Below are positions 14,859-34,454 of a stretch of 64,000 bases of DNA, in pieces; within the stretch, counting starts at the first letter, position 1; each line of letters opens with the position of its first letter. The position numbers were made by a program, and so were the translations under genes. The notes under the pieces are model-generated. The model saw only the letters and a list, made by a program, of their open reading frames with translations, ran no database searches and was not told the DNA's origin. Source of the stretch: an uncultured Ignavibacterium sp. (GTDB taxonomy: Bacteria; Bacteroidota; Ignavibacteria; Ch128b); assembly GCA_964454895.1 (NCBI GenBank), contig CAYVTW010000011.1:8264-72263 (forward strand), written 5' to 3'.

Positions 14859-15186
14859 AATATAATTTCTTTATGAATATCATAGCGGTTTGCTTCACAA
14901 CTAGTCCATTTGCTCCAAAAATCAACAAATAAGATTGAAGTTATAATTTCAAACAATAAATCTACTTTGAAATTAAAGTAAAGCTAAACTTCATATAATA
15001 AAATTTAAAGGTTCATTCATTTCAAAATAAAACACCTCTCAAATTGAAACACTCTAAAGAAATAAAACCATCAAAAACTGACAAAAATTTCAGCTTAATA
15101 AGGGGCATAACAATTGGCATTTAATAACTAATGAAAAAGTTTTCAAAAAAATCATTAGCAATAATTAAAAATTCATGGAGGTTAAC

Positions 15187-18100: not shown

Positions 18101-20607
18101 ATGGAATAAAAGACTTTGGCGAAGTGGGTATTCCAAATGTCTTAATAAAGTTGTGGGGAACATCAGCAAACTTGATTGCGACTACTCTAACCAATACTCA
18201 AGGTCAATTCGTATTCACTGGTGTTTTGCCTGGTCAATATCATGTTCAAGAAATAGATCCTCCAGGATATATTAGCACAACACCAAATTCCTTCTTCATC
18301 ACTGTTTCTTCTTCAAATGTAACGAATATTCTATTTGGAGATAAGGTAAAACCAACACCTGAACCTTGTGATTTAACAAAGTATGTAACTTACACACAAG
18401 ATCAATGGTGTCTTGATCCTGCAAAATCATTACTACTAAATAAATTCAATCAGATTTTCCCAAGTGGTTTCAAAATTGGTGATGCTGGTTCTCCTTACAC
18501 CATTACATTTACAAACGGAACAGCATTAAAGAATTTCTTACCACAAATTGGTGCTCCGGGTCAGTTAAATATGAATTATGTTAATCCAGCTACAACACCA
18601 GCAGGTCAATTTGCTGGAAATGTTGCTGCGTTGGCGCTAAATATTGCATTCAACGATTCAGGATTACTTGGTTCAACATCAACCACAAAACTTGGTAACC
18701 TTGTTGTTGCATCAGGGCCAATGAAAGATTACAAAGTTTATGAAGTTCTCTTACTTGCAAACAAAGCTCTTGGTGGTGGCACAACCCCATTCTCCATCCA
18801 GACTCTTAACGATGTTGTGTCAAAAATTAACTACAACTTCGCTTGCAATTGCAATTATGGTTATTTGATATGCCCACCTCTACCAGACTCTTGCGGTGGT
18901 GGATTTGATGCTGGTGTTGAATCAAATGCAAATCTTGCAGACTTATTATTGCAAAGATTAACAAAGATTGAATATGGAATGACAACAAAGATACTCCGTA
19001 ATCCAAAAGCTCCATTTTCAGCAAGTCTTGGATTGCGAGATATTTTCCCACCAGTTGGTCCAATGGGTTCAAGACCAGTTGAATCAACTCCATTTGATAT
19101 TCTTGGAATTTCCAATGCAACATCAGCCTATGCTATTGATTACAATCTCTCACTAGCAAAAGGTGATGTAAGAATTGCGAGCGTCTTCGCAACTACTACA
19201 AATCCACCTTACATTTATGAACACACAAAGGCTATCTGCGATAGATTGATAAATGCAGAACTTGATTACATCTCTCAAGTGAAAATAGATAATCATTACT
19301 TCTTCGCATCAGTTCTTGATAAAGCTGAAGAGGGAGTGAAAGACTATACAATTCACTTCAGCATTTACGAAGTTGGAAACAAATTCCTTGTAGATTCTAG
19401 ATGGTTGATCGAAGAGTATGAAGTTCCAGCCAATGCATCTAATGTTTATAATTTCCAAGTATGGGGAAGCAACTTCCAGAATGCGATTTATCTATCTGAA
19501 TTGATACTTGAACAATTCAAGTCAAAAGGTAAAGTCGAGTATCTCAATAAGAGCGCCGTCCCAACTTCACTTGTTTATGTGAAGAAAGGAAAATACAACC
19601 ACAACGGAACCATAGAATTGATCGTTAACAACGAACAGATAATATCTGATAATATCACGATCAAATTCAAAGCACGAGAAGTCCAAGGTGGTGCAAAGAA
19701 TGAATTCGTAAGAACATTCCAGATTAATCCAGGACTGAATACCCTGCTTATCAATACTGGAGTTCTTTCTGATGCCAATGTTTATATCAGCACAACAAAT
19801 GGCTTCAAAGATGAAATCTTTGTTAGCGGTGGTGCATATACATATTTGAGTGGCAGTGCTTCAAAAGTCAATGAATTCATAACAAATACTTTCTCTACAC
19901 CTTCATTGAATTCATTGCCAAAAGAATCTATGGTTTTGAGTGGTGGCGCAAGAATCAAAGGACAACTCGGTGATTGGATGACATTGTTTAGATCATTGAC
20001 AGCTAACACTGCACCATATGATTTAAGCGATTATGATGCAATTAGATTCACAATTCGTGGTTATGGAAATGTTCAAGTAAGATTTGAACAAGATGGTATA
20101 AAGAATTTTGATTATCATTCCAAGAAGGTCACTCTCGACGGTTCCGAGCAAGAATTGACTATACCATTCAGTGAATTCAAACAAATGAATGGAAACAAAC
20201 CTCTCGATCCAAGACTTATCAGAAAGCTATCAGTGATGATAAGTAAGAATGAGAATCCAACTCTAAACAATGTGGATGTTGAGATTAAGAACATAGTATT
20301 CTTGAAGAAACACAATGATGGTTCTACAAATACCGAGATACCAAAAGAATTCAAACTTGCTCAGAACTATCCTAACCCATTCAATCCAAGCACCTTAATT
20401 GAATACTCGGTTGCAAAACCAGAACGAATTACGATCAAAGTTTACAATGTTTTAGGAAAAGAAATTGCAACATTAGTTGATGAAGTAAAAGAGCCGGGCG
20501 TCTACTCAGTTAGATTTGATGCAAGTCAATTAAGCTCTGGAATTTACTTCTACAAGTTGCAAAGTGACTCATACAATGCAGTACGCAAGATGATTTTGCA
20601 GAAGTAA
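15187..20607 (+). CDS. Giant T9SS-sorted cell-surface adhesin-like protein (duplicated N-terminal module, 7 SdrD-B/Cna-B repeats, CBM-like domain, C-terminal Por sorting domain)
   Basis: GGAGG RBS at 15177-15181 favours ATG 15187 (MKPLIQNQ... signal peptide) over track start 15175. Seven approximately 120-aa repeats carry the SdrD B-type signature (GDxVWxDLNxNGIQDxGExGxPNxxVKL...TTNSxGxYxFxxxPxGxYxI). The module CDLSKFVTYTQGGW...GGTTPYTISQLNEAV recurs as CDLTKYVTYTQDQW...GGTTPFSIQTLNDVV. The C-terminus LAQNYPNPFNPSTLIEYSV...GIYFYKLQ is a T9SS C-terminal domain. Confidence 0.8.
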   Translation: MKPLIQNQFWPIIKLVVSFLMIIGLIFPTNSNAQSSNCDLSKFVTYTQGGWGNKGGKTCSGVTFITVKQLETGAEVSKGNGTDKLGSNTTFTFPNGKSVVIHTSCSQPIYIGMTVTADGFTYKITQLTTIPSSTTSNPGTIRDLYFSDVFPTGLEVGGIYKLKLTSAYAVEKFLPQGGSPKALDKNYTDPTSTKAGVFAGQVVALKMNVAFNDAGKIGSGPVKLGDLIVTAGPLAGKTVYQVLDLANIALGGGTTPYTISQLNEAVTDINENFKDGKYNKGFLRCPDLPQLGSISGTVFFDVNGDGTMNNDEFGLPNVKVYLYSNSILIDSTFTNESGFYKFSNLNAGNYSVKVVDPYMLILTNPPNPKSVILASGEAKNNINFGYKCGQQLAKISGYVYVDANLNGIKDPGEAPLANVTIKLYDQDGVIIGTTTTNSSGYYEFSGLIPGIYTIEEIDPDLYRSTTPNYINLTLLAGQHSQNNNFGDILSADICGMVFNDENGDGVRQPSELGISDVLIELFEMPSGSFVASTITGVNGEYCFGYLIPGTYKIKQTDLPGYISTTPNEIVRTVNQGDKSYNNNFGDKIVTIMKGSIGDFVWNDLNKNGIQDPGELGMPNVIVKLYDCSNNWIKEITTNSNGYYKFDSLNPGSYQILIQLPSGYAFSPANQGSDDTKDSDIDPLTWKSHCISLLSGQNITNVDAGIYELPTCSIGDRVWNDLNKNGIQDAGEPGVPNIKVKLISCSTSNVVAITTTNSSGNYVFNNIPSGNYQIKFYDLPNNWVFTTKDAGSNDLIDSDADPSTGMTICFNVDQFNCDSNSTRWDAGIYFNPPQQFCSIGDKVWEDLNINGIQDPNEPGVANIKVTLFACSTSTPIDVKYTNAQGNYLFSNVPAGNYYIKFENIPTGYAFTFKDVGSNDLLDSDVDPLTGKTACFPVDPNDCENNSVKWDAGIYICPPTFEVSGMVFNDLNGNGIKDFGEVGIPNVLIKLWGTSANLIATTLTNTQGQFVFTGVLPGQYHVQEIDPPGYISTTPNSFFITVSSSNVTNILFGDKVKPTPEPCDLTKYVTYTQDQWCLDPAKSLLLNKFNQIFPSGFKIGDAGSPYTITFTNGTALKNFLPQIGAPGQLNMNYVNPATTPAGQFAGNVAALALNIAFNDSGLLGSTSTTKLGNLVVASGPMKDYKVYEVLLLANKALGGGTTPFSIQTLNDVVSKINYNFACNCNYGYLICPPLPDSCGGGFDAGVESNANLADLLLQRLTKIEYGMTTKILRNPKAPFSASLGLRDIFPPVGPMGSRPVESTPFDILGISNATSAYAIDYNLSLAKGDVRIASVFATTTNPPYIYEHTKAICDRLINAELDYISQVKIDNHYFFASVLDKAEEGVKDYTIHFSIYEVGNKFLVDSRWLIEEYEVPANASNVYNFQVWGSNFQNAIYLSELILEQFKSKGKVEYLNKSAVPTSLVYVKKGKYNHNGTIELIVNNEQIISDNITIKFKAREVQGGAKNEFVRTFQINPGLNTLLINTGVLSDANVYISTTNGFKDEIFVSGGAYTYLSGSASKVNEFITNTFSTPSLNSLPKESMVLSGGARIKGQLGDWMTLFRSLTANTAPYDLSDYDAIRFTIRGYGNVQVRFEQDGIKNFDYHSKKVTLDGSEQELTIPFSEFKQMNGNKPLDPRLIRKLSVMISKNENPTLNNVDVEIKNIVFLKKHNDGSTNTEIPKEFKLAQNYPNPFNPSTLIEYSVAKPERITIKVYNVLGKEIATLVDEVKEPGVYSVRFDASQLSSGIYFYKLQSDSYNAVRKMILQK
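16060..18330 (+). repeat. Seven tandem approximately 360-nt intragenic repeats (SdrD-B-like domains) within the giant adhesin gene
   Basis: Nucleotide-level similarity visible e.g. 16968-17075 vs 17319-17425 vs 17693-17800 (...ggtgaYaRagtWtggRaWgaYttRaatAWaaaYggWatacaRgat...). Confidence 0.7.
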
Positions 20608-21219: not shown

Positions 21220-24036
21220 CTATTTTATAACAACCATTTTCTTTTCTTGAGTGAAGTATTCAGTCAATAATCTATAAAAATAAACTCCACTTGTTAGATT
21301 TGATGCATCAAAAGATTTTAAATAAGAGCCAGCTTTCTGAAAATCATCAACAAGCGTAATGACTTCCTGACCGAGTGCATTGTATACTTTTAATTGTACT
21401 TTTGTATCAATAGGTAAATCATAACTTATATAAGTTATGGGATTAAACGGATTAGGATAATTTTGATATAATTCAAACTTTGACGGTAAGATTTCATTTG
21501 AATATTCAACTGATGTTAATAAACCAGGTTCAGGTAGTGGTAATTTTTTAGTGGTAAAAATTCTAAACTCACCTGGTTGAAGATTTATAGTCATCTGTGT
21601 GTTTGTTACATTTAAGCTATCACCATAAAAATAATTATACCACCAACCTGTATTTTGAAAGCTTGGAGTAACTGTCCTTTGAATCACATCGAAGTTTCCA
21701 ACAATTGCAACATTCATAGAGTCATGATTTAACCATAATCGTTTGACAGCACCACTAAAATCTGTTGTGAAGTTAGTTGTCCTATTAAAAACAGCATAAC
21801 TTTTTCTTAAATCGATCAATGTTGCAAATGTTTTATATAATTTATTTCTGTTCACATCTAAAAAATATCCCCATCTAATTGGCTTAGGTCCAGTTCTTCC
21901 ATTGTAATCGATCGAATAATCATACCCAAGTTCGCCAAATTGCCAGATCATTTTTGGACCAGGGACAGTGAAGAAAAATGCAGCAGCAAGTTTAATTCTT
22001 TCTAGAGCAGTTGCAAGATTTTTAATGTTATAATTACCACTCGAATTACCATACATTAAATTCTTATACATCAATCTTTCTTCATCATGGCTTTCCATAT
22101 ACCCAATCAAATGCGGTTTTGAAAATCCACGAGCTTTGTAAGAAATACGTGTGAAATCTGATTTTCCTCCATCGTGCCAGCCCATTGTTGCCTCATTGTA
22201 GTTGTAATTTAAATTACCCCAGCTAAGCATTCCATAATTGGTTAAAACTTGTTCTTCAGAGTCAACAGCAAAATGTTCTAAAATTACATAAGCAGTTGAG
22301 TCATATTTCCAAATCGAATCAGCATAAGCTTTGAGAATGTTAATCCTCGATTGGTCATATTGTCCCCATAGACCTACATCGTTACCAGAGTTTGTTTGAG
22401 TAAATCCTTTAGATAAGTCAAATCTGAATCCATCAACTTTATACTCTTGCAGATAAAACTTCAAAGCACGAGCGACCAATTCTTTTGTTGCTTGACTTTC
22501 GTGATTAAAATCGTAACCAACATTATAAGGATGACGAGCAACAGGATTAAAATATGGACTATTTGCAGCAGGTCTCTGATTTGTTTCATCCCACCACATC
22601 CGAACAAGTGAAGACTGACCAAAATTGTGATTGAATACAACATCAAAAATCACAGCAAAACCCATTTGGTGAGCTTTATCAATGAATGCTTTTAGATCAT
22701 TCTTTGTGCCGTAATATTTATCCATTGCAAAATAAAAAGTTGTGTTATATCCCCAGCTTTCATTTCCTTCAAATTCATTTACTGGCATTAATTCAATGGC
22801 ATTAACACCAAGTTTCTTTAAGTAATTTAATGTATCAGCTAATGTCTTATAATTAGGAGTAGTTAAAAAGTCTCTTACGAGCAACTCATAAACTACAAGT
22901 TGAGTTTTATCAGGCCTTTGAAAGTTTGTAACCTGCCAATTGTACTTTGACTCATTAATTTGAAATACTGAAACTAAGTGAGTTGTTTTTCCAAATGGAT
23001 AAGGTTTAAGATTTGGATAGACTGTCGAAGGAATATATTGATCATTCCATGGATCAAGAACTTTTTCTGTAAAAGGATCTGCAACTTTTAGCCTACCATC
23101 GATATAGTACTGATAGCCATACTCTATATTCGGATTAAGGTTATTTATTTGAATCCAATAACGATTTCCATCAGGAGTACGCTTCATGTAATAACTAGGA
23201 TCAACCTCCCAATTTGTAAAATCTCCAATCACATAAACATAATTTTTATGAGGTGCATATAAACATAAAATCACGCTCGTACTATCAACAACATTTACTC
23301 CTTCCTGAATACCTAGTGGCAATGGTGCTGTTTGAACTGGTGCTCTAACAATAAAATAATTCGAGTCGACTTTTATATTGCCCTGTGCATCTGTGGCAAC
23401 AGCGCGCAAATTGTATCGTCCATAATTAAAAAACATCATTGTTCGCGAAAGATAAAATGTATCCGTTTGAGCAATTAATGAATCGTTTAGATATAGCTTT
23501 AAATTGACTGAACCAGCAGATGCTGCCGTAATTGTAAAATTCTGAGCTGTATTTATAATCGTCCCCTTTTCGATTGGATTTAAGAAACGAACATTCAATC
23601 CTGGTTTATATAGTGGAAGGAAAATATCACTACCATCTACATCTCTCCCAACTTTACTTCCATCTGCGTTTCTGAAAACAAATGCTAATCTCAAGATATC
23701 TTCCGAATCAGGTACACCATAATATTGTGGGATGTTTATCGTAATTCTCCAAATGTTATTTCCGATGTATTGAATTGGTGGTTGATTGACCGGAGAACCC
23801 CAAGTAGTTTTAACGTATCGCCAATCATTTGGATGCCGACTTAGATTTGTAATCACACCAGTGTGAACATAAATTGGAAAAACTCCAATTAGTGCTCCGT
23901 TCCCTTTTGTTACATCATAATCAATTGTGATTACATCATTTCGAGTTGCAAAGTAAGGTGTCCATTGAAGAACCTGAGAATTCAAAATTCCAGATGTAAT
24001 GAGAATGAGTAAAGCTAAAATTTTTAATGACTTCAT
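21220..24036 (-). CDS. GH13-family alpha-amylase/pullulanase-type glycoside hydrolase with E-set/CBM48-like N-terminal domains and T9SS C-terminal sorting domain
   Basis: GH13 conserved regions I-IV present: FDVVFNHN, VDGFRFDLSKGF, YVILEHFA, YMESHDEER; N-terminal beta-sandwich domain (VYVIGDFTNWEVDP...); C-terminus LYQNYPNPFNPITYISYDL...GVYFYRL is a T9SS CTD; N-terminal signal peptide. Confidence 0.8.
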   Translation of the reverse strand: MKSLKILALLILITSGILNSQVLQWTPYFATRNDVITIDYDVTKGNGALIGVFPIYVHTGVITNLSRHPNDWRYVKTTWGSPVNQPPIQYIGNNIWRITINIPQYYGVPDSEDILRLAFVFRNADGSKVGRDVDGSDIFLPLYKPGLNVRFLNPIEKGTIINTAQNFTITAASAGSVNLKLYLNDSLIAQTDTFYLSRTMMFFNYGRYNLRAVATDAQGNIKVDSNYFIVRAPVQTAPLPLGIQEGVNVVDSTSVILCLYAPHKNYVYVIGDFTNWEVDPSYYMKRTPDGNRYWIQINNLNPNIEYGYQYYIDGRLKVADPFTEKVLDPWNDQYIPSTVYPNLKPYPFGKTTHLVSVFQINESKYNWQVTNFQRPDKTQLVVYELLVRDFLTTPNYKTLADTLNYLKKLGVNAIELMPVNEFEGNESWGYNTTFYFAMDKYYGTKNDLKAFIDKAHQMGFAVIFDVVFNHNFGQSSLVRMWWDETNQRPAANSPYFNPVARHPYNVGYDFNHESQATKELVARALKFYLQEYKVDGFRFDLSKGFTQTNSGNDVGLWGQYDQSRINILKAYADSIWKYDSTAYVILEHFAVDSEEQVLTNYGMLSWGNLNYNYNEATMGWHDGGKSDFTRISYKARGFSKPHLIGYMESHDEERLMYKNLMYGNSSGNYNIKNLATALERIKLAAAFFFTVPGPKMIWQFGELGYDYSIDYNGRTGPKPIRWGYFLDVNRNKLYKTFATLIDLRKSYAVFNRTTNFTTDFSGAVKRLWLNHDSMNVAIVGNFDVIQRTVTPSFQNTGWWYNYFYGDSLNVTNTQMTINLQPGEFRIFTTKKLPLPEPGLLTSVEYSNEILPSKFELYQNYPNPFNPITYISYDLPIDTKVQLKVYNALGQEVITLVDDFQKAGSYLKSFDASNLTSGVYFYRLLTEYFTQEKKMVVIK

Positions 24037-25169
24037 TTTAAGTACTCCATCTTTTTTGACTCATTATAATCACCAATTTGAATTGAGTATATGTATGTCC
24101 CACTACTCAAACGATAATAATATCCGTCTAACTCAATTTGATGATAACCATCAGAGTTTATTTGTTGAGTTAGCTTTGTAATTTCTCTACCAAGAGTATC
24201 AGTAACTCTGAATGTTAATGTTTTACCAACAAAATCTTTAGGAATAAAATATCTTATTTGAGTTGAGTAATTAAATGGATTAGGATAATTCTGATATAAT
24301 ATAAACTTTGTTGGTATTAAACTTAATTCTTCAACCAAGGTTTGTGGAAGAGCTGGACTTCCTGCATTAATCCAGGCAGTGTAAATCAAAGAACCAAGTC
24401 GATTACTCGCTTTTTGAAAAAGATATTTTGTGAATGTTGACGAGTTGTTCCACAAGTGTAAATAGTAAGTTTCGCTGCTTGTATTCCCAGCAATTGATTT
24501 CGCAATACTGTCTGCTCTTAAAACATCATCAAGATATGAATAAGATTCAAATAAATAATTGAAAATAAACTCAAGAGGATTTTGAATATAAGTGACAGGT
24601 TCTGTTGAGAAAGTGAATGAGCTTTGATAACGATTAATCATTTGCGTTTCGTATCTCGAATGAATTCCTTTTTGACCTGTGAATTGACCATCGTAATTTC
24701 TAGTGATATGCAATGGTTGATGCCCATCAGCTACATAGTGACCTAAATCAGCTGCAATTAATTTTGCTCTATCCCAATCTCTTCTTTGTAATGCTGAAGT
24801 TAAAGAATCAAGCGTATTCTTAGTTGCCCAAGGAAGTATTCCTTGCTGCCAGACATAATCCCAACCATATCTCGCAATTAAAGTATCAATTGAATAAGGG
24901 AAATTACCCGTAAAAAATTCTTGATAATTATCTATATCGATATAATGCTTATTTCCTTCAGTTGGATCAGAACCTTTTCTATAATCAGCATCTGATGCGT
25001 GTTGCGCTAAAAATTCTGCCCAAAGATGATAACCAACCATCTCAGGTGGAAAATGTTTGGTAGAATTTCGATTAATTAAACTGTGCCCAACGCTTCCCCA
25101 ACCAAATATTTCTCTTGCAACTACAAATAAAAATATTATTGAAAAAGAAATAGAAATCAATCTCTTCAT
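24033..25169 (-). CDS. Secreted S1/P1-family zinc nuclease with T9SS C-terminal domain
   Basis: Signal peptide then WGSVGHSLI (N-terminal Trp/His zinc ligands of S1/P1 nucleases), ...DADYRKGSDPTEGNKHYIDID, HQPLH; C-terminus LYQNYPNPFNYSTQIRYF...GTYIYSIQ (T9SS CTD). Overlaps GH13 gene by 4 nt. Confidence 0.7.
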   Translation of the reverse strand: MKRLISISFSIIFLFVVAREIFGWGSVGHSLINRNSTKHFPPEMVGYHLWAEFLAQHASDADYRKGSDPTEGNKHYIDIDNYQEFFTGNFPYSIDTLIARYGWDYVWQQGILPWATKNTLDSLTSALQRRDWDRAKLIAADLGHYVADGHQPLHITRNYDGQFTGQKGIHSRYETQMINRYQSSFTFSTEPVTYIQNPLEFIFNYLFESYSYLDDVLRADSIAKSIAGNTSSETYYLHLWNNSSTFTKYLFQKASNRLGSLIYTAWINAGSPALPQTLVEELSLIPTKFILYQNYPNPFNYSTQIRYFIPKDFVGKTLTFRVTDTLGREITKLTQQINSDGYHQIELDGYYYRLSSGTYIYSIQIGDYNESKKMEYLK

Positions 25170-26003: not shown

Positions 26004-27611
26004 TTATTGAATGTATTGCTGCAAAAAATATTTCGTATTGATTGCTTCCTTGGTTGATATTTTAATTACATCTGACCAATGTAGTGAAGAACCGAACTTA
26101 AATAAATTATCAGTTAAATATTTTCCAATCTCTTTATTATTTATAAGAACATTTTGCCAAACATCATCAGAATTTAAAATATTCTTATGAAGAAATATGT
26201 TCAGTTGTGATGAAAAAATTTCTCCGAGTAAATAATTATGGTAATAACATGGCGAAGTGGCAATATGAATTTTAGTTGTCCAATCAGGTTTATTACGATT
26301 ATCAGGCTTATTCAAATGAAGATATTTTTTGTGTAAATCCCACCAGAATGAATTCAAATCTTGCTCTGGATTTTCATATAAATTTTTTTCGAAGCGATAC
26401 ATTACAAAAACCCACCGTGCAAAGATTATCTGATTCATTTTTGTGAATTCTATCGCTTTGTTTCTAATGTTTTCGATTTCATTATCATTTAAGTTTAAAA
26501 TTTCTCTTATCCAAACTGGATGGTGTGCAAATTTTCCAAATAACATCGCAATTGCTTCGGTTACGAAAATATGAGCAGCATCTCTAAGGATGAAAGGAAG
26601 TGATTGATCAATAAACTTATCATAAACTGCATGACCATACTCATGCAATAATGTACCCATCCAATCAACATTAGATTTTACATTACAGAGGACACGAATA
26701 TCACTTGCTCTGTCTATACTAATACAAAATGCATGTTGATTTTTACCGGACCTTTCAAATAAATCACTTTTCTCGATCAAATCATCAATATCAAGTCCAA
26801 TGCTTTCAAAATAAACTCTCGTAATCTCTACTAAATTTTTGTCATGATAGTATTTATCAAAATCAAGAGAATACTGTGGTGGAGCCTCTTGAAAGAATCT
26901 TTGTTGATAATGCCATGGCATTAAATCTTTTTTATCTACTTTATATCTCTCAGATAAATCTTCATCAATTTTATTTTTAACCACAGAAAATTGTTGATCT
27001 GTTTGAATCTCTAATTCTGCAAAGATTCTATCTATTTCATCAGGTTCAAGTTCAGATAGAAGCAAACTCATCTCGTGATAATTTTTATAACCGAGATATT
27101 TAGCTTGCTCGTTTCTAAGTTTTGCTAGATGAGTCAGATCATTAACAATTAAATCTCCAATTTCTTTGCTTGCTTCCCAAACTTGCTGAAGAACGATTGA
27201 GTTAGTTTCGGTCTTTAAGATGTCATCTACTTCGTTATCGGTTAAGATTCTTCCATTGAATTTTGCTCGAAAAGAAGTAAAAACATTCTCAATTTTATTT
27301 TGAAGGTTCGTAATTTCTTCAAGCTTCTTATAATCATATTGATTTGGAAGGAATTCATTATATAATATTTTGATTTGTCTTTGAGTTAATTGATCAAATT
27401 CCGAAATGTTTGAATAAAGTTTTTGAATTTCTTCAAAATTCTTTCTATTACGAAAAAGTTTAATTAATTCTAATTGATATTTCGTGACCTCATTCCAATT
27501 TTCTTCAGTGCTATTTACCGAAGCATTCCAATATGCTTGGGAGCTTCTTATAAAAATTTCTCTGAACTCTTCTTCAAATGAATCTAAAAATTTTGGCTTT
27601 GTGTTTTTCAT
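26004..27611 (-). CDS. M2-family (angiotensin-converting-enzyme-like) zinc metallopeptidase, cytoplasmic/peri-form
   Basis: Zinc motif LLHEYGHAVY plus downstream third-ligand block FVTEAIAM (ACE: HHEMGH ... HEAIGD); N-terminal AYWNASVNSTEENWNEV resembles ACE/ACE2 'ASWNYNTNITEEN'. 535 aa. Confidence 0.55.
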   Translation of the reverse strand: MKNTKPKFLDSFEEEFREIFIRSSQAYWNASVNSTEENWNEVTKYQLELIKLFRNRKNFEEIQKLYSNISEFDQLTQRQIKILYNEFLPNQYDYKKLEEITNLQNKIENVFTSFRAKFNGRILTDNEVDDILKTETNSIVLQQVWEASKEIGDLIVNDLTHLAKLRNEQAKYLGYKNYHEMSLLLSELEPDEIDRIFAELEIQTDQQFSVVKNKIDEDLSERYKVDKKDLMPWHYQQRFFQEAPPQYSLDFDKYYHDKNLVEITRVYFESIGLDIDDLIEKSDLFERSGKNQHAFCISIDRASDIRVLCNVKSNVDWMGTLLHEYGHAVYDKFIDQSLPFILRDAAHIFVTEAIAMLFGKFAHHPVWIREILNLNDNEIENIRNKAIEFTKMNQIIFARWVFVMYRFEKNLYENPEQDLNSFWWDLHKKYLHLNKPDNRNKPDWTTKIHIATSPCYYHNYLLGEIFSSQLNIFLHKNILNSDDVWQNVLINNKEIGKYLTDNLFKFGSSLHWSDVIKISTKEAINTKYFLQQYIQ

Positions 27612-27811
27612 AGATTTTATAATTCCTATTGGAAAGTAAAATAATTTAGAGCCAAATTTTCTTCAATCACCATCTTTAGTGCTCGTGAAATAAAAATTTT
27701 AATCATCATCTTTCAAACAAACTCATTTTTCTACAAAATGATGGCTCATTAAAAGGATTAGCTAAATATAGAATGAATTAAATTAATTTTTATTTGTACA
27801 CAGTTATAAAG

Positions 27812-28609
27812 TTATTTATTGAGTTTTTTATATAACTCAGCTTGCATTTCGGCAGCAATGCTTAATGCAATCTCTTGGGGAGTCTCACCACCAATATCCA
27901 GTCCAATTGGTGAGTGTAAGTTTGATAGATCGACATCACCGAAAACTTCTCGAATCTGATTTTTTAATTTTTGTGCTTTTGATTTTGAAGCAATTACACC
28001 GATATATCTTACTCTCAAATTACGAGCATAGATTTGTTCAATCACATCAAAATCATGACTGTGTCCATGCGTCATTACTACAATAAAAGCATCTTCAGGC
28101 GGATTGAATGAATAAGCATATTCTGAATAATCAGACAAAATGATTTCATCTGCGAAAGGATTCGTTTCTTTGTTCGCAAATTCCGCTCGATTGTCAATTA
28201 AAATCTTATGAAAATTCAAAAGACTTAATTGTTTTAGTAACGCTTGACCAACATGACCTCCACCAAATACATAAACAACTGGTTTATTACCAAATACCTC
28301 GTAATATATCCAACATCGTCCACTGCAACTCATACTTAAAACTTTTGCTTGATCTTGAATTGGAGCATCACCGGAGAGAAGATATTCGACGATACCACTT
28401 CCCCTTGTTTTCATCCTTCGGATTGCTTCGAATATTACTTCTCTTTCTATTTCACCTCCACCAATTGTTCCATAGGTAGTATTCTCGTTTTCAACTATCA
28501 TCTTAAATCCAACTTTTCCTGGAGTAGAACCTTCAGTTTTTACGACTGTTGTCAATACAAAAGGTTTGTTATGTCGTACTAATTCAGCAGCTTTTTCAAA
28601 GATGTTCAT
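27812..28609 (-). CDS. XdhC/CoxI-family molybdenum-hydroxylase accessory (cofactor-insertion) protein
   Basis: N-terminal XdhC_CoxI block FVLTTVVKTEGSTPGKVGFKM...IGGGEIE and C-terminal Rossmann-like block VYVFGGGHVGQAL...HGHSHDFDV...SPIGLDIGGETPQEIALSIAAEM. Confidence 0.7.
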   Translation of the reverse strand: MNIFEKAAELVRHNKPFVLTTVVKTEGSTPGKVGFKMIVENENTTYGTIGGGEIEREVIFEAIRRMKTRGSGIVEYLLSGDAPIQDQAKVLSMSCSGRCWIYYEVFGNKPVVYVFGGGHVGQALLKQLSLLNFHKILIDNRAEFANKETNPFADEIILSDYSEYAYSFNPPEDAFIVVMTHGHSHDFDVIEQIYARNLRVRYIGVIASKSKAQKLKNQIREVFGDVDLSNLHSPIGLDIGGETPQEIALSIAAEMQAELYKKLNK

Positions 28610-28611
28610 TT

Positions 28612-29400
28612 TTACAATTCCTTTAATAGTTTATCGTAATCTTCTTTTGTGTCTATATCTTGATGAATTTCGGGATATTGGCATTCCCAGATTTTTTGTC
28701 TAATTGAAATTTTCCTTCGAAATTCTCTAAGGTTCGAATCAATTTCTTCAAAAAGAATTTTATCAACTAACCTATTACTGATTAAAATCGGATGCCCAAG
28801 TTTGTTTAAGTAAGATGGTTGTAACCAATCTATGTCTTTTTCTATTTGACTTATGAATTCCAGATAAAAACTTTTTGGCAATGATGGTTGATCAACTTGA
28901 TGAATTAAAATAAAATCAAATTCATTTCCTTTAGAATGATCAATACTGTGCGATCTATTACTTTCGTCGACTTGTTTTTTTGAATTGCTTCCAATCAAGG
29001 GATCAAATATAATTTCATCATCAAATTTATTAGAAGTTTCATTTCTCGAACCAAAAGAAAAGAGGGCTTGAGAAGTAAAAGTTTCTAACGATTTGATTTT
29101 TGCAAGTCCACATTGAAGAGAGCTAAACATTCCACTTTCATAATTTCGATTTATTTCGATCAACAAATTTTCATGAAGATGTTTCAATTTCTCATCACTC
29201 GATAATTTTAATTTCATATATTCCCCATCAAAACCAAAGACAACGACAATCTTCTCACACACTTCACATAGTTTTATTACCAATTCAGAAATAAATGTAT
29301 GTTCGTTAATTTTCAGAAAAGCTTTTGGTTCACCAATTCTTCCGGATTTCCCAGCTGCTAAAATCAATCCAACAATCTTAATTTTTTTCAACGAGTTCAT
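28612..29400 (-). CDS. MobA-like NTP transferase, MocA/YgfJ-type (molybdenum cofactor cytidylyltransferase-like) with about 50-aa internal insertion
   Basis: GLILAAGKSGRIGEPKAFL (nucleotide-binding loop), ILIHQVDQPSLP and GHPILISNRL (MocA/YgfJ motifs); low-complexity insertion FSFGSRNETSNKFDDEIIFDPLIGSNSKKQVDESNRSHSIDHSKGNEFDF precedes the DQP motif. Confidence 0.6.
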   Translation of the reverse strand: MNSLKKIKIVGLILAAGKSGRIGEPKAFLKINEHTFISELVIKLCEVCEKIVVVFGFDGEYMKLKLSSDEKLKHLHENLLIEINRNYESGMFSSLQCGLAKIKSLETFTSQALFSFGSRNETSNKFDDEIIFDPLIGSNSKKQVDESNRSHSIDHSKGNEFDFILIHQVDQPSLPKSFYLEFISQIEKDIDWLQPSYLNKLGHPILISNRLVDKILFEEIDSNLREFRRKISIRQKIWECQYPEIHQDIDTKEDYDKLLKEL

Positions 29401-30655
29401 TCATCCAATCTTCATATTTTTTTAAGACAGGGGATTTGTTCCAATACATTAATGATTGTGTATCTTTTAAACCATTTCCTGTAAACATTAATAGGTTAGT
29501 TTCTTCGTTCTCAATCATTCCATTATTAAGTGCTTTCTTAAGTCCTGCAAATGCAGATGCCGAAGAGGGCTCAATAAAAATTCCATAATTCTGAATTACT
29601 TCTCTTTGAGCAAAAAGAATATCCTCATCACTTACTTCAATTGCAAATCCTTTACTTGTTGTAATCGCCTCATCAGCCATGTAAAGATTTCTTGGTGCAG
29701 CTGCGCAAATGCTATCGGCAACTGTTTCTGCCGGTTGGAATTCAAAGACTTTCTTTTTGAAAAATCTTACAACTGCATTACTACCACTTGATTGAACTGC
29801 GATTAATCTTGGCAATTTTTCAATTAACTCGAGCTCTAACAATTCTGAAAATCCCTTATACAAACCACCAATAATTACTCCATCTCCAACGGGCACAAAA
29901 ATATTTTCTGGAATTTTTCCATTAAATGAAATGAAGATATCATAAGCACCAGATTTCTTTCCTTCGATTGTTAACGGATTATATGCAGTGTTTCGGTTGA
30001 ACCATTTCTTTTTAGCAGAGACTTCGAGACACAAATCGAAAGCATCATCATAACTTCCATCAACAATGAAAAGATTTGCACCATAAGCTTGTATTTGAAT
30101 TCGTTTCGATTCAGGAATATTCTTCGGAACAAAAATATTTGATGATAATCCAAACCGTGCACAAATCCCAGCGATAGACGAACCAGCGTTACCAGTTGAT
30201 GCCGCAGAAATATTTTTAATACCGAGTTGAATTGCTTTTAAGGCTACAAGAATGCTTGCTCTATCTTTGTAGGAGAAAGTTGGATTTCTTGTTTCATCGA
30301 AAGCATAAAGTTTGATATGATTATAATCTAATTTAACTAAAGGATTTGAGTTTAGTGATAAACTTTCGAGGTTATCCTCGGGGATCAATGGATATTTGTT
30401 ATTGTCGTAATTGTAAGCAAGTGGTAGTAATTCAGGAAGCTGCCAAATTTTACCGCATTGAGAACCAAGAATTTTTTCTCTTATATTATTTCTTTTAATC
30501 AGATTATAGTCATACTTAATTCTTAAAACACCTTTGAGTGGTTGATTTCTCTCAGCCTTACCACAAGCTGGACAAAGATAAATTAATTCACTTTCGATCT
30601 TATATGCTGGAAATTCCTTTTTACATTCCGAACAGAAATAATAATAATGGCTCAT
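29378..30655 (-). CDS. PLP-dependent fold-type-II enzyme, threonine-synthase-like, with N-terminal Cys4 zinc ribbon
   Basis: N-terminal CSEC...(16)...CPAC zinc ribbon; PLP-lysine region FSYKDRASILVAL; glycine-rich loops STGNAGSSIA and PVGDGVIIGG typical of TrpB/ThrC/CysK superfamily; 425 aa. Confidence 0.55.
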   Translation of the reverse strand: MSHYYYFCSECKKEFPAYKIESELIYLCPACGKAERNQPLKGVLRIKYDYNLIKRNNIREKILGSQCGKIWQLPELLPLAYNYDNNKYPLIPEDNLESLSLNSNPLVKLDYNHIKLYAFDETRNPTFSYKDRASILVALKAIQLGIKNISAASTGNAGSSIAGICARFGLSSNIFVPKNIPESKRIQIQAYGANLFIVDGSYDDAFDLCLEVSAKKKWFNRNTAYNPLTIEGKKSGAYDIFISFNGKIPENIFVPVGDGVIIGGLYKGFSELLELELIEKLPRLIAVQSSGSNAVVRFFKKKVFEFQPAETVADSICAAAPRNLYMADEAITTSKGFAIEVSDEDILFAQREVIQNYGIFIEPSSASAFAGLKKALNNGMIENEETNLLMFTGNGLKDTQSLMYWNKSPVLKKYEDWMNELVEKN

Positions 30656-30672
30656 ATAAAGATTAGTATTTG

Positions 30673-32172
30673 TTATTGATAGAATTTCTCAGAAAAAATA
30701 TTTCCACGATTTATTATCAAGTTAGGATCAAAAACTTTTTTAATTTCAAACATTTTCTTCAGCACATTTTCGGGATACATCAATTCAAAATATTGTCTTT
30801 TCAATTTTCCAATTCCATGCTCGGCTGAAATTGTTCCACCAAACTCAATGGCTTTCATACAAAAATCACGATATAATTCAATTGCAATCTCATTTTGTTC
30901 TTTATCTAAGGGAAGCATATTGAAATGTAGATGATTATTCCCAATATGTCCGTATCCAACATAATCAATCGAATTTTTTACACATTCATCACAACAATAA
31001 TGATAAAAATTTCTGAAATGCTTCGAAGGAACCGCGATGTCTGTCCCAACTTTTCGTAAATCATTTCTTGAAATGTATTCATTCACTAAAGCTGAGATTG
31101 AATGGCGGAACTCTTTTATATCATTTATTTCCTTCTCATTAAATGCAAACCAGATTTCATTAAGATTACCTTTGCAAATTGATATTAACTCAAAAATTTG
31201 GTCAAGTAATCTTTCTTTATAGGAAAAATCTTCTGAAGTACTTGAGGTATGATTGTAAATCTCTTGCTCGAACCAGATTGCAAATTTTTTGTCTTTTACT
31301 TTTGGAAATTTTGAGGAAAGAAAAATTAAAGCTCTATCATCAAAAAATTCTAGTGCTCTAGGTGAAATTATATCAAATTTTTTATCTTTTTCTCTTAATC
31401 TCGAGATAGAAACAAATTCAAAAGCATCTTCAAAAGAATCGAAGAAAACGACCATTGAAATTATTTCATCAGGTTCATCTAAAAGCTTTAATTCAGCTTC
31501 TAAAATTATTCCAAGAGTTCCTTCTGATCCTATAAATAAATCAATCAAATCCATATTTGGTTGAATATAATATCCAGCAGCATTTTTAACTTCTGGTATT
31601 TTAATATTAGGTAACTGTATAGAATAAGTCTTGCCCGATTTAGTTTTAATCCTAAATTTCAGTCCATCAGCAAAAATCTCACCTCGTTTCAAGTCTAAAA
31701 TATCGCCATCGGGTAAAAGGACTTTTATCGCATGTATCCAATTTCGTGTAGGGCCATACTTTAATGTTCTCGCACCAGATGCATTAGTAGCAACAGTTCC
31801 ACCAATTGAACAATTTTTTTCCGTTGGATCAGGTGGATAAAATAGTCTGAATTCTCGTAAATAATTTTGCAATACATTTAATGAAACAAAGGCTTGAACT
31901 CTAATATTTTTCGAGTTTATATCAAAAGATAAAATTTTATCAAACTTTTCCAGTGAAATAACAACTCCACCATCTGGAACTCTCCCACCTACAAGTCCAG
32001 TCCCCGCACCCGAAATTGTTACTGGTATTTTACTTTCATTTACGTATTTAATTAGTTCGACTAACTCTTCATAATTTTCTGGAATGTAAAGAGCTTCACA
32101 ACCACTACTCTTAAAGTTCGATGCATCCGTAAGATAATTTTGTATTAAATCTTTTTCTGTTTTAATAATCAT
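30673..32172 (-). CDS. FAD-linked oxidase (GlcD / D-lactate dehydrogenase family; FAD_binding_4 + FAD-oxidase C-terminal domain)
   Basis: PCMH-type FAD domain PVTISGAGTGLVGGRVP, ...CSIGGTVATNASGAR...; C-terminal oxidase domain; 499 aa. Confidence 0.75.
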   Translation of the reverse strand: MIIKTEKDLIQNYLTDASNFKSSGCEALYIPENYEELVELIKYVNESKIPVTISGAGTGLVGGRVPDGGVVISLEKFDKILSFDINSKNIRVQAFVSLNVLQNYLREFRLFYPPDPTEKNCSIGGTVATNASGARTLKYGPTRNWIHAIKVLLPDGDILDLKRGEIFADGLKFRIKTKSGKTYSIQLPNIKIPEVKNAAGYYIQPNMDLIDLFIGSEGTLGIILEAELKLLDEPDEIISMVVFFDSFEDAFEFVSISRLREKDKKFDIISPRALEFFDDRALIFLSSKFPKVKDKKFAIWFEQEIYNHTSSTSEDFSYKERLLDQIFELISICKGNLNEIWFAFNEKEINDIKEFRHSISALVNEYISRNDLRKVGTDIAVPSKHFRNFYHYCCDECVKNSIDYVGYGHIGNNHLHFNMLPLDKEQNEIAIELYRDFCMKAIEFGGTISAEHGIGKLKRQYFELMYPENVLKKMFEIKKVFDPNLIINRGNIFSEKFYQ

Positions 32173-32225
32173 CAGTAATAGATAAATTAAAATTGCTATT
32201 TCAAATTAAAAAATAATTTTTAAGA

Positions 32226-34454
32226 ATGACAGAAAGAATTCTATTTATCCTATTTTTTACTTTTCATCAGTTAATATTTTCTCAACAATTATTCATATAC
32301 ACGGATTCTTTAATGAAAAGGAATTGGCATGCTAACCATTCGTGGCAAACGGAATTTAATTTCAAAAATCAATCACAAAAATATTTAGGCACAAACTCAA
32401 TTTCAGTTAGATATAAAACCGGTTACGCAGGGTTTGTTCTCTTTATGGCGAATTTAAACATATCTGGTTATGATACATTGGTTTTCTGGGTTAATGGTGG
32501 TAGTGGAGGAGGACAATCGTTTTGGATTAAAGTTTCTTTTGATGGAAAAACTTTCTCTCAAGGAAAAAACTCTTCTGATTATGTTAACATCGAAGCAAAT
32601 AAATGGAAACAAGTAAAAATTCCACTTCAAGATTTAATGGAGGGAAATTTTTATATCGTCTCACTTTTATTTCAAGAAAACAAAGGATATGGTCAATACG
32701 AATTTTTCATTGACGAAATTTATCTAAACTCAATTCAAGGCAATCCCAAAATTCTCGATACTAAAATCTCAAGCTACAATTTCTATCCAGGGGATAAGAT
32801 TAAAATTAATTCTATAATTTCAGATCCAGAACATATGACCAATATCAAACAAGTTATTTTAGATTGTAGTCAAATATTTCCAGGACTTATAACTTCCCTC
32901 TCATATAAAAATGATTCAACTCCATTTCTATCGGTAATTGGAAAATTTGAAGGAGAAGTTCTTATTCCAGAAAATTCATCATACGGAGAAAAAAGAATTA
33001 CTCTAATCGCCGAAGATTTTTCTGGTAAAAAAGCATATCAGGAAATTTGGATTGGTGTAATGAAAAAAGATACCATACCAATTCCTTCGGGATTACCTAA
33101 ATATCTTGCAATTGGTACAGCAACCACTACTTCGAATCTTTCTTGGCAAACAAACAATGGAAACGAATGTTGGGATATGGGCTACCAATATATCACTTGG
33201 GGATGGTGGAACTGGCACTACGAATTTGTAAAACGATTTTGTGATGATGCTTATCGTAGAGGATATATACCCGTAATCCCTTTATATTTATTTCAAACTG
33301 CGCCTGAAGAATTTGGTTGTAGAGGAAGTGAATATGAAAAAATTTACTGTGCAATTAACAATCAGAATTTGATGAATGAGTTCTGGAAAAGATTTATTCA
33401 GATGTGTCAAGAAGCGAAAAGGAGTTTTGCTCAAAAAGTGATTTTTCACATCGAACCTGATATGCTCGGTTACTTGCAACAACGATGCATAAACGAAAAT
33501 AAAACTCCAGAACAAATTCCAGCGATTGTTAACGATCCAAAATATCCAAACAACTTAACTGGAATGCACCAACGGATGATTGATCTTGTCAGAGAACATT
33601 GCCCCAACAAAGGATTGATTGCATTTCACGCATCATTATGGGGAAATATTATTAGTCTAAAAGATAATGAAGAAAAAATTTTAGACATTGAAAATCTAGC
33701 ACAAAATACAGCAAATTTCTTGCTTCAATTAAGTCCAAACTTTGACTTAATTTTTATGGATTGGTCTGATAGAGATGCTGGTTATGATGAAATTTGGTGG
33801 GATAAAAATAATACTTCTGTTCCAAACTTTTCTCGTGTATTAATGTTTACAAACTATTTATCACATTTTACTCAAAAGAAAGTAATTTTATGGCAAATTC
33901 CGATTGGTAACGAAAACCTTCCTAATGTTTCAAATCAATATGCGGATAACCGATTAGATTATATTTTTGATTATCCCGTAGATATAGCAAAATCTGGAAT
34001 TATAGCTTTGTTATTTGGTGCAGGTATACCCAACATGACAACTCAGTTCACCGATGGTGGACATCTTAAAGCTCGAGCCATAGAATATTGTCAGAAAGGA
34101 AAAATAAATTTATATGATTTAGATAAGAGAGATACTATTTCACAAAGACCTCCAAAAGAAATTATTTTTTTCCAGAATTATCCTAATCCATTTTCAAGTT
34201 ATACCTATTTAAAGTTTGAATTACCGGAATTAGAAGATGAGATCAATCAGCTATCAAACTCTACAAATTTTTCCATCAAAATCTATAACATACTTGGAGA
34301 GTTTGTTGCAGAAATAACGAATGACCACTTTTCAGCAGGAAGACATGAAATTAAATTCCATCCAAATAGATTTAATCTATCGAGTGGAGTTTACTTTTTC
34401 GAATTGAATTATGGAAAGATGAAGAAAACGATTAAAGGAGTGGTTGTAAAGTAG
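32226..34454 (+). CDS. T9SS-sorted secreted protein, putative glycoside hydrolase (CBM-like N-terminal beta-sandwich + TIM-barrel-like core)
   Basis: Signal peptide; N-terminal beta-sandwich; central region rich in aromatic/acidic motifs (WDMGYQYITWGWWNWHYEF, VIFHIEPD, WQIPIGNENLPN) suggestive of a retaining GH; C-terminus FFQNYPNPFSSYTYLKFEL...GVYFFEL is a T9SS CTD. Enzyme family not assignable by eye. Confidence 0.45.
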   Translation: MTERILFILFFTFHQLIFSQQLFIYTDSLMKRNWHANHSWQTEFNFKNQSQKYLGTNSISVRYKTGYAGFVLFMANLNISGYDTLVFWVNGGSGGGQSFWIKVSFDGKTFSQGKNSSDYVNIEANKWKQVKIPLQDLMEGNFYIVSLLFQENKGYGQYEFFIDEIYLNSIQGNPKILDTKISSYNFYPGDKIKINSIISDPEHMTNIKQVILDCSQIFPGLITSLSYKNDSTPFLSVIGKFEGEVLIPENSSYGEKRITLIAEDFSGKKAYQEIWIGVMKKDTIPIPSGLPKYLAIGTATTTSNLSWQTNNGNECWDMGYQYITWGWWNWHYEFVKRFCDDAYRRGYIPVIPLYLFQTAPEEFGCRGSEYEKIYCAINNQNLMNEFWKRFIQMCQEAKRSFAQKVIFHIEPDMLGYLQQRCINENKTPEQIPAIVNDPKYPNNLTGMHQRMIDLVREHCPNKGLIAFHASLWGNIISLKDNEEKILDIENLAQNTANFLLQLSPNFDLIFMDWSDRDAGYDEIWWDKNNTSVPNFSRVLMFTNYLSHFTQKKVILWQIPIGNENLPNVSNQYADNRLDYIFDYPVDIAKSGIIALLFGAGIPNMTTQFTDGGHLKARAIEYCQKGKINLYDLDKRDTISQRPPKEIIFFQNYPNPFSSYTYLKFELPELEDEINQLSNSTNFSIKIYNILGEFVAEITNDHFSAGRHEIKFHPNRFNLSSGVYFFELNYGKMKKTIKGVVVK

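Follow-up and report, generated by a model that had tools for sequence, protein, structure and literature searches.

Four consecutive genes on the minus strand of a 64-kb stretch of DNA from an uncultured Ignavibacterium sp. (positions 27812-32172; "the window" below means the whole 64-kb stretch) encode an FAD-linked dehydrogenase (FADox), a threonine synthase (ThrC)-like enzyme of the type that depends on pyridoxal phosphate (PLP), a MocA-like nucleoside triphosphate (NTP) transferase, and an XdhC-family protein. Comparison with related genomes shows that the last three, referred to here as the trio, are in the window's lineage a displaced piece of the anaerobic supercluster for reductive uric-acid/purine (2,8-dioxopurine) catabolism. 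The new element is the ThrC-like family itself, PLP enzymes with a rebuilt active site that recur, so far undescribed, in the reductive urate clusters of environmental phyla. The explanation we favor as a whole, to which we assign a probability of roughly 0.6, is that the trio was displaced from a purine cluster, that the client of its maturation proteins is encoded at a distance, that the ThrC-like enzyme stands in for YgeX, and that FADox is an unrelated neighbor.

A displaced fragment of a reductive uric-acid cluster

The reductive uric-acid pathway was elucidated as recently as 2025, from work on E. coli and clostridia (Li et al. 2025, PMC12507026; Liu et al. 2025, bioRxiv 10.1101/2025.04.24.650524; Percudani, PMC12990295). 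According to these sources, XdhD reduces urate to 2,8-dioxopurine, which YgfK dearomatizes; the rings are opened by SsnA and HyuA; both ureido groups are taken off by YgeW, together with the carbamate kinase YqeA, and by YgeY; and the ammonia-lyase YgeX converts 2,3-diaminopropionate to pyruvate. The E. coli cluster reads ygeW-ygeX-ygeY-hyuA-yqeA-yqeB-yqeC-mocA-ygfK-ssnA-ygfM-xdhD, with mocA and the XdhC-domain gene yqeB inside it.

Our genome scan, which took one genome per GTDB species, yielded 80 loci encoding a ThrC-like protein in at least eight phyla; homologous loci, on genome or metagenome contigs, carry labels of the form L011. A survey of gene neighborhoods across Ignavibacteria, which the original prediction had proposed, places the trio inside the reductive urate clusters of relatives. 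The trio comes directly after a YgeW-like carbamoyltransferase and YgeY in related Ignavibacteria and in Calditrichaceae, with YgfK, SsnA, and one or two XDH-family molybdoenzymes on its flanks. One such cluster, L011, encodes in order a guanine-deaminase-like protein, a CysK-like PLP enzyme (488 aa), an SsnA-like amidohydrolase, YgeY (526.5 bits against a cutoff of 321), a YgeW-like protein, the ThrC-like enzyme, and the NTP transferase, and on its opposite strand an 853-aa Fe-S/Mo protein, YgfK (759 bits), XdhC, and another Mo subunit. The 853-aa protein passes the model for selenium-dependent xanthine dehydrogenase (XDH), TIGR03311, at 972.7 against 830.45. L010 is arranged similarly, as CysK-like-SsnA-YgeY-YgeW-ThrC-like-NTP transferase followed by XDH, YgfK, and XdhC. 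L018 runs from SsnA-like through CoxL-CoxM-CoxS, YgfK, YgeY, YgeW-like, ThrC-like, and NTP transferase to XdhC, and L014, L017, L019, and L020 follow the same SsnA/CoxLMS/YgfK/YgeY/YgeW-ThrC-like-NTP transferase-XdhC plan. In the Calditrichaceae locus L087, a single run holds CoxLMS, YgfK, YgeY (M20), an ornithine carbamoyltransferase (OTC)-like protein, ThrC-like (424 aa), NTP_transf_3, XdhC, and CoxLSM. Orthologous trios are thus co-located with the full cluster in L010, L011, L014, L017-L020, and L087. These clusters (L011, L018, L087, and the Desulfobacteraceae locus L067) share with that of E. coli the SsnA, YgfK, YgeY, YgeW-like, carbamate kinase, XDH-family, MocA-like, and XdhC-family types, whereas the 80 ThrC-like loci lack YgeX and have the ThrC-like gene, often together with a CysK-like gene, instead. 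The surroundings of the trio showed no genes of YqeB/YqeC type.

The window itself, by contrast with the E. coli cluster, holds no catabolic or XDH gene. Phmmer searches of every window open reading frame with the proteins encoded across the xdhA..xdhD region of E. coli and with Ignavibacteria seeds for XDH and uricolytic enzymes matched the four genes only and found no XDH-family gene across the whole 64 kb, and no uricolytic cluster partner (SsnA, YgfK/UacX, XdhD-type XDH, YgeW/UacY, or YgeY). Pfam annotation likewise identified no molybdoenzyme, molybdenum cofactor (Moco) biosynthesis gene, or selD among the genes of the 64 kb, and the absence of a nearby molybdo-hydroxylase on which the original prediction had remarked therefore extends to the entire window. 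The joined arrangement is the older state, because it is present in both Ignavibacteria and Calditrichaceae, and the window's lineage therefore carries a displaced fragment. A rearrangement in that lineage placed the trio between an M3 peptidase gene and a pair consisting of FADox and a gene for a protein of the type IX secretion system (T9SS).

The displaced arrangement is itself stable. The order FADox-ThrC-like-NTP transferase-XdhC-M3 peptidase-YjbQ is common to L004-L008 as far as contig ends permit, with ThrC-like identities to the window protein of 68-75%, and the exact window ThrC-like protein is present on Logan contigs with identical gene order. In L009, the closest outgroup to the window's lineage (63% ThrC-like identity), the trio is present with an AbgT-family transporter gene (678 bits; L009:1189-2721) directly upstream in place of FADox, so that the order of the trio is kept in at least six species-level genomes (L004-L009). 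Against the five species-level relatives L004-L008, the rate of nonsynonymous substitution (dN, 0.08-0.41) is far below that of synonymous substitution (dS, >1.3) for all four genes, with dN of ~0.1 for XdhC, ~0.2 for the ThrC-like protein and FADox, and ~0.33 for the NTP transferase. The resulting dN/dS values of ~0.05-0.25 are similar to those of flanking housekeeping genes, although they are rough because dS is saturated. XdhC is the most conserved of the four, at 81-89% identity to most of these relatives and 75% to L008. Because dN is far below dS throughout, the four genes are real and functional and evolve under purifying selection; they are neither chance reading frames nor relics.

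The ThrC-like family and its gene neighborhoods

The window ThrC-like protein matches the Pfam family PALP (1.2e-58, 199.2 bits), and its catalytic domain shares ~40% identity with those of solved ThrCs. No NCBIfam ThrC cutoff is reached, the shortfall being narrow for TIGR00260 (161.8 against 167.1) and wide for the others (219.8 against 303, 200.8 against 421, and 188.7 against 301); the L011 orthologue passes TIGR00260 (169.5). We aligned the window protein with the 80 genome-locus proteins (n = 81) and compared this family with five solved ThrCs: M. tuberculosis 2D1F, A. aeolicus 2ZSJ, B. subtilis 6CGQ, T. thermophilus 1UIM, and A. thaliana 1E5X. Family and ThrCs share PLP fold type II, the PLP lysine, and the STGN and TGxGLKD motifs. 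They differ in an extra N-terminal zinc ribbon, whose cysteines are kept in 78 of the 81 members (C8, C11, and C28 as such in all 78; position 31 as Cys in 70 and His in 8), and in a genomic context that is catabolic rather than that of a thr operon. They differ also in the active site, where, with ThrC residues given in T. thermophilus numbering throughout, the window protein has Ala157 at Thr88, Thr229 at Arg160, Asp258 at Asn188, and Lys at Gln164. Every one of the 81 members keeps the PLP lysine and has Ala for Thr88, Thr, Leu, or Met for Arg160, Lys for Gln164, and Asp for Asn188, whereas Thr88, Arg160, and Asn188 are all kept in the five solved ThrCs. The ThrC GNAGN loop is GDG(V/C/N)I in the family and GDGVI in the window protein.

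We take Thr88, Arg160, and Asn188 to be the substrate-phosphate contacts of T. thermophilus ThrC; the numbering on which this assumption depends agrees with the sequences, in that Lys61 is the PLP lysine and none of the three residues varies among the solved enzymes. When 1.84 billion 50%-identity cluster representatives were searched, the Lys-Ala-(non-Arg)-Lys-Asp signature was present in ~115 of the best 150, with the first canonical ThrC signature near rank 121. The family is large and distinct from ThrC, and its members are probably not threonine synthases, because the phosphate-site residues are replaced in all of them and the gene context is catabolic. The invariant Asp at the phosphate site of ThrC would suit a cationic or hydrogen-bond-donating leaving group.

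Other assignments of this protein fit poorly. A MetM-type homocysteine synthase (an activity mentioned in PMC12172450) was rejected, since a user of O-phosphohomoserine should keep the phosphate site, as were cysteate synthase (62.8 against a cutoff of 324.9) and SbnA (42.9 against 349.95). Nor is it orthologous to YgeX, scoring 39.6 against a cutoff of 276 with the YgeX model NF006058 and 16.8 bits with E. coli YgeX itself (16.8-39.5 bits in all comparisons). What it does share with YgeX is PLP fold type II, an equivalent place in the cluster, and, in the loci examined, a complementary distribution.

Uricolytic or carbamoyl markers lie within 10 kb of the ThrC-like gene in 62 of the 80 loci: carbamoyltransferase in 49, carbamate kinase in 37, a CysK-like PLP enzyme in 33, YgeY in 30, an XDH-family Mo subunit in 27, SsnA in 26, YgfK in 14, and HyuA in 7. 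Six of the 18 marker-free loci belong to the window's own lineage, and several others are short contigs. A YgeX orthologue was found in 0/80 loci; nothing in them matches E. coli YgeX better than the ThrC-like proteins, which score 30-40 bits. The gene immediately upstream encodes carbamate kinase in 19 loci, carbamoyltransferase in 14, and the CysK-like enzyme in 14, and that immediately downstream the NTP transferase in 14, SsnA in 14, the CysK-like enzyme in 7, and XDH subunits in 7. Desulfobacteraceae L067 (deaminase, ThrC-like, CysK-like, YgeY, carbamate kinase, selenium-dependent XDH-like, SsnA-like, HyuA, and YgeW) lacks, among the E. coli pathway gene types, only YgeX and YgfK, with ThrC-like and CysK-like genes in the place of YgeX. 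Chloroflexia L036 carries adenine deaminase, an FAD subunit, XdhD-like, an LldD-like flavoenzyme, CysK, ThrC-like, SsnA, YgeY, carbamate kinase, and YgeW-like genes. A compact operon in Cloacimonadales (L043:9587-15747; also L056 and L075) consists of ThrC-like, CoxL, CoxS, CoxM, and a UacX-like DHO_dh+Fer4 gene, and would put the putative last enzyme of the pathway together with its first two steps.

Because pathway or carbamoyl genes accompany the family in 62 of 80 loci and YgeX in none, we tentatively propose, at somewhat less than even odds, that the ThrC-like family serves environmental anaerobes as the terminal C-N lyase in reductive urate breakdown and is a non-orthologous replacement for YgeX. 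On the simplest reading, it would, as the PLP-dependent terminal enzyme in these phyla, process the amino acid that remains once the ureido groups are gone, or take albizziin directly; elimination of the beta-amino or ureido group from 2,3-diaminopropionate or albizziin would yield pyruvate. The ThrC-like component goes unmentioned in the papers on the reductive urate pathway and in the other literature searched, and a literature search found nothing relevant linking threonine synthase to ssnA, ygeY, carbamate kinase, or XDH clusters. In the SsnA neighborhood survey of Li et al. (Fig. 3g legend and methods, PMC12507026), the marker for YgeX was PF00291 alone, which would score ThrC-like and CysK-like genes as YgeX.

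Several variants of these clusters were seen alongside. The CysK-like protein of ~488 aa accompanies the ThrC-like enzyme in many phyla (e.g., L011:4938-6404; also L010, L022, L024-L026, L028, L038, L040, L044, L049, L052, L055, L058, L065, L067, L073, L074, and L082); it scores 95.9 with its best NCBIfam match, cysK, against a cutoff of 351, and ~70 bits with the cysteine synthases that are its closest solved relatives. In Chloroflexota, a CysK of bona fide score (345 aa, 359 against 351) occupies its place. An FMN-dependent alpha-hydroxyacid dehydrogenase-like gene of LldD type (274 bits) lies between the XdhD-like and CysK genes at L036:7668-8771; Li et al. describe an F420-dependent luciferase-family reductase in the Chloroflexota urate cluster (PMC12507026), and the LldD-type gene may be another reductase variant. 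In a further cluster type (L027, L044, and L050; e.g., L044:6171-14863), with no XDH or SsnA within 10 kb, the ThrC-like gene is found with carbamate kinase, two YgeW/OTC-like carbamoyltransferases, a 173-aa unknown protein, a true-scoring ornithine carbamoyltransferase, and a carbamoyltransferase resembling the HypF C terminus; loci of the L044 type have ThrC-like with carbamate kinase and three carbamoyltransferases. In such clusters both ureido groups could be phosphorolysed, or a different carbamoyl-based catabolic route could operate. Some cluster genes are split into two or three reading frames (YgeW-like, L012:5640-6700; YgeY, L025:7640-8700; NTP transferase, L016:11067-11875; ThrC-like, L007:10001-11294), through either pseudogenization or indel errors in the assembly of these metagenome-assembled genomes.

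The predicted maturation pair, its likely client, and FADox

XDH-family enzymes receive their molybdopterin cytosine dinucleotide cofactor (MCD) from two helpers: MocA synthesizes it, and XdhC binds it and inserts it. The window NTP transferase belongs to Pfam NTP_transf_3 (PF12804; 3.5e-18, 66.7 bits against a cutoff of 27). The classification by hidden Markov models suggested in the original prediction bore it out in part: TIGR03310 (matur_MocA_YgfJ) is the best NCBIfam match, but at 97.6 against a cutoff of 186.45, and the L011 orthologue, at 123.5, is also below that cutoff. Identity to E. coli MocA is 24%, with the AAG-S-R-G...K, D-P, and GHP motifs kept and A16, G17, S19, R21, K26, D170, and P172 invariant in an alignment that includes the E. 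coli protein. The window protein also differs from MocA in having no client gene in 64 kb and in a Ser/Asn/Asp-rich insertion, in frame between GL..K and DFxLIHQVDQP, which leaves all invariant residues in place and is absent from all seven homologues compared (L004, L008, L011, L018, L085, L087, and E. coli MocA). Orthologues adjoin CoxSLM in L085 and lie inside the full cluster in L087, L011, and L018. CobY-like and other NTP_transf_3 roles were rejected on account of these XDH neighbors.

The window XdhC is a short form with both domains of the chaperones XdhC (Rhodobacter capsulatus), PaoD, and YqeB, namely XdhC_CoxI (PF02625; 1.2e-18, 67.2 bits) and XdhC_C (PF13478; 5.5e-37, 127.5 bits), each above cutoff, but unlike those proteins it is not encoded beside a client. 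It scores 126.4 against a cutoff of 161.6 with TIGR02964 and 200.7 against 350 with NF045664, does not match TIGR03309 (YqeB) at E ≤ 0.01, and aligns with E. coli YqeB (117.5 bits) only over the shared XdhC domains. Over its full length it is 50% identical to the XdhC of L087, which sits between the trio and CoxLSM; homologues at 52-54% identity lie directly beside CoxS-CoxL-CoxM in L085 and L086, once with an NTP_transf_3 gene between. Identity to the 319-aa XdhC of Melioribacter-type clusters is only 31%. The original prediction had offered as one reading an accessory set for a selenium-dependent hydroxylase; the L011 XDH and the TIGR03310 match speak for it, but the TIGR03310 score below cutoff and the lack of a TIGR03309 match do not.

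Because their orthologues adjoin XDH-family enzymes, the two proteins likely mature an XDH-family enzyme whose gene lies in another part of the genome. The MocA-like enzyme would convert Mo-molybdopterin to the cytosine dinucleotide cofactor, and XdhC would hold this cofactor and insert it into the client, whose gene would have to lie more than 27-31 kb from the trio. An orphan maturation pair serving a distant enzyme, another of the original readings, is thus the best supported of them, since the clusters of relatives (L011, L018, and L087) contain XDH-family enzymes. That the client is encoded elsewhere is likely also because all four genes are under purifying selection. Displaced-arrangement relatives were checked for it (NPV11723-5 on a 2.65-Mb contig, MCR4417108/10, MEJ5305343/5, and others). 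Among the best 120 matches (all ≥65% identical) to the CoxL encoded beside the closest outside XdhC, none lay on displaced-arrangement contigs and none belonged to a matching accession series. The type strain of I. album encodes a CoxL/CoxS-like pair, IALB_2573/2574 (PMC3362086), and no I. album protein was recognized among the closest ThrC-like or XdhC homologues listed; the pair gives weak support to a distant client.

FADox has the two-domain architecture of GlcD, LctD, and the D-lactate and D-2-hydroxyglutarate dehydrogenases (FAD_binding_4, 1.5e-34; FAD-oxidase_C, 2.3e-32), and its nearest solved structures are LctD (7qh2_C, 160 bits) and the latter two enzymes. It differs from these types in falling below all NCBIfam equivalog cutoffs (TIGR00387 glcD, 236.5 against 567.9) and in having no GlcE/GlcF or EtfAB partner adjacent. 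It adjoins the trio only in L004, L006-L008, L089, and L090, the last of which, from the metagenome scan, has the window arrangement; among the loci examined, it was never found beside the trio outside one genus-level lineage. L088, also from the metagenome scan (68% FADox identity), has the T9SS-protein/FADox pair without the trio, and five relatives at 42-48% identity have unrelated neighbors. FADox is a lineage-specific neighbor outside the conserved module, and it belongs to the local backbone because L088 has it without the trio and its distant homologues neighbor other genes. It is probably co-transcribed with the trio, because the gap between them is only 17 nt; a metabolite shared with the ThrC-like enzyme, which would be pyruvate if that enzyme makes it, is speculation.

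The four genes, their coordinates, and their families are as originally predicted, the open reading frame list and Pfam agreeing, and so is their coupling: in the 5′ to 3′ direction of the unit, the 17-nt gap is followed by a 23-nt overlap (ThrC-like/NTP transferase) and a 2-nt gap (NTP transferase/XdhC). The nearest NCBIfam models are glcD, threonine synthase, MocA/YgfJ (TIGR03310), and XdhC, with all four proteins below the curated equivalog cutoffs. Of the four-gene operon claimed for this locus, the transcription unit is probable, but the genes are not one functional unit, FADox being independent of the trio. A sigma-70 consensus scan of 27400-32400 returned 18 promoter-like sites where 23.4 were expected, and a terminator consensus scan returned one terminator-like site, on the wrong strand for the unit. 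Coordinates are collected in the following table.

Table. Features of the four-gene locus (window positions).
Feature	Positions	Strand	Details and basis
FADox gene, GlcD/LctD/D-LDH-family FAD-linked D-2-hydroxyacid dehydrogenase-like	30673..32172	-	499 aa; Pfam
ThrC-like gene, fold-type-II PLP enzyme with N-terminal zinc ribbon	29378..30655	-	425 aa; Pfam
Zinc-ribbon motif CxxC...CxxC (C8, C11, C28, C31) of ThrC-like protein	30563..30634	-	family alignment
Codon of Lys130, predicted PLP Schiff-base lysine (T. thermophilus Lys61)	30266..30268	-	invariant in alignment
Codon of Asp258, invariant Asp in place of Asn188	29882..29884	-	family alignment
MocA/MobA-like NTP transferase gene, predicted molybdenum-cofactor cytidylyltransferase	28612..29400	-	262 aa; Pfam, NCBIfam
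Low-complexity insertion in NTP transferase, 56 aa, residues 104-159	28924..29091	-	alignment of 7 homologues
Short XdhC-family gene, predicted Moco-binding insertion chaperone	27812..28609	-	265 aa; Pfam
Divergent intergenic region, 53 nt, between FADox gene and gene for T9SS-tailed protein (32226-34454, +); presumed promoter region	32173..32225	.	

The remaining ~35 genes of the window are housekeeping genes by Pfam, including nusA-infB-rbfA-truB-ribF, pnp, RNase E/G, 2-oxoglutarate dehydrogenase, and SprA, and the window also holds a cellulose-synthase-like set, an aldehyde dehydrogenase, and an alanine dehydrogenase. The T9SS is represented by a 2292-aa SprA-like component (51089-57967, -), an 1810-aa protein with seven SdrD B-like repeats and a T9SS C-terminal sorting domain (15175-20607, +), and at least four other genes with Por_Secre_tail domains (those at 21220-24036, 24033-25169, and 32226-34454 among them). 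A gene run at 6916-13205 (-) resembles an exopolysaccharide or cellulose-type synthase set, with a GT2 glycosyltransferase bearing an MshEN domain of the c-di-GMP-binding type, a BcsB-like protein, two unannotated proteins, and an adjacent response regulator.

Competing explanations and significance

Several observations weigh against the explanation that we favor. No uricolytic gene turned up in the window, and no gene for a client XDH-family enzyme either there or, among the CoxL matches listed, on contigs with the displaced arrangement; both maturation proteins score below NCBIfam equivalog cutoffs. The NTP transferase is the fastest evolving of the four genes and carries the 56-aa insertion in the window strain, and saturation of dS blurs the estimates of selection. 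The substrate proposed for the ThrC-like enzyme is drawn only from gene context and from the loss of residues whose phosphate-binding role we presume. The CysK-like enzyme could be the real substitute for YgeX, or could share that role. Lastly, the trio is translationally coupled even without the catabolic genes, which a role of the ThrC-like protein in maturation would also explain.

This last point leads to the alternative that the trio is one maturation unit, in which the ThrC-like protein supplies a ligand, or sulfide or selenide, to MCD on XdhC for the terminal Mo=S/Se. NifS4, which works with XdhC in Rhodobacter, offers an analogue. The three genes are contiguous and overlapping in Ignavibacteria and Calditrichaceae and stayed together in the window lineage after parting from the catabolic genes; an XDH Mo subunit lies within 10 kb in 27 of 80 loci, the ThrC-like gene is directly upstream of CoxLSM in L043, L056, and L075, and the neighboring XDH of L011 is of the selenium-dependent type. 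We nevertheless consider such a unit unlikely, given that no MocA- or XdhC-like gene occurs within 10 kb in family loci outside Ignavibacteria and Calditrichaceae, that the commonest direct neighbors of the ThrC-like gene are carbamate kinase, carbamoyltransferase, CysK-like, and SsnA genes, and that L044-type clusters have no XDH within 10 kb; complementarity with YgeX better fits a catabolic role. Somewhat less likely again is a housekeeping threonine synthase that adjoins MocA and XdhC by accident. All best NCBIfam and Protein Data Bank matches are threonine synthases, the TIGR00260 score is just under its cutoff and that of the L011 orthologue above it, and databases label many members "threonine synthase," but the replacement of Thr88, Arg160, and Asn188 in every member, with an invariant Asp at the phosphate site, and the uricolytic or carbamoyl context across phyla speak against it; hom and thrB were not noticed in the 80 loci, in which no search aimed at them was made.

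The original prediction had also entertained a new biosynthetic pathway of nucleotidyl activation, PLP-dependent beta-replacement, and FAD oxidation. Tight packing, the same order in L004, L006-L008, and L090, and purifying selection on all four genes would be expected of it, yet FADox occurs without the trio in L088 and never beside the trio outside its one lineage, the AbgT transporter gene takes its position in L009, and the other three genes are orthologous to genes within XDH/purine clusters; we give such a pathway only a slight chance. The least credible account makes the trio a decaying, functionless remnant of a lost purine pathway. It would explain why no pathway or client gene lies within 64 kb and why the NTP transferase has both its odd insertion and the highest dN, but the reading frames are intact in at least six species-level genomes, dN/dS is comparable to that of flanking housekeeping genes, and XdhC is strongly conserved.

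In the favored explanation, the apparently orphan MocA/XdhC pair of the window is accounted for by the break-up of a cluster rather than by a new pathway. The ThrC-like family occurs in reductive urate clusters from which YgeX is missing, and its active site has been remodeled away from binding phosphate. Should the family indeed be the terminal lyase, or an enzyme acting on albizziin, the pathway would be complete for Ignavibacteria, Chloroflexota, Cloacimonadota, Elusimicrobiota, Desulfobacterota, and others, and many "threonine synthase" annotations of its members would be corrected. It could also help to settle which ureido intermediate is processed last.

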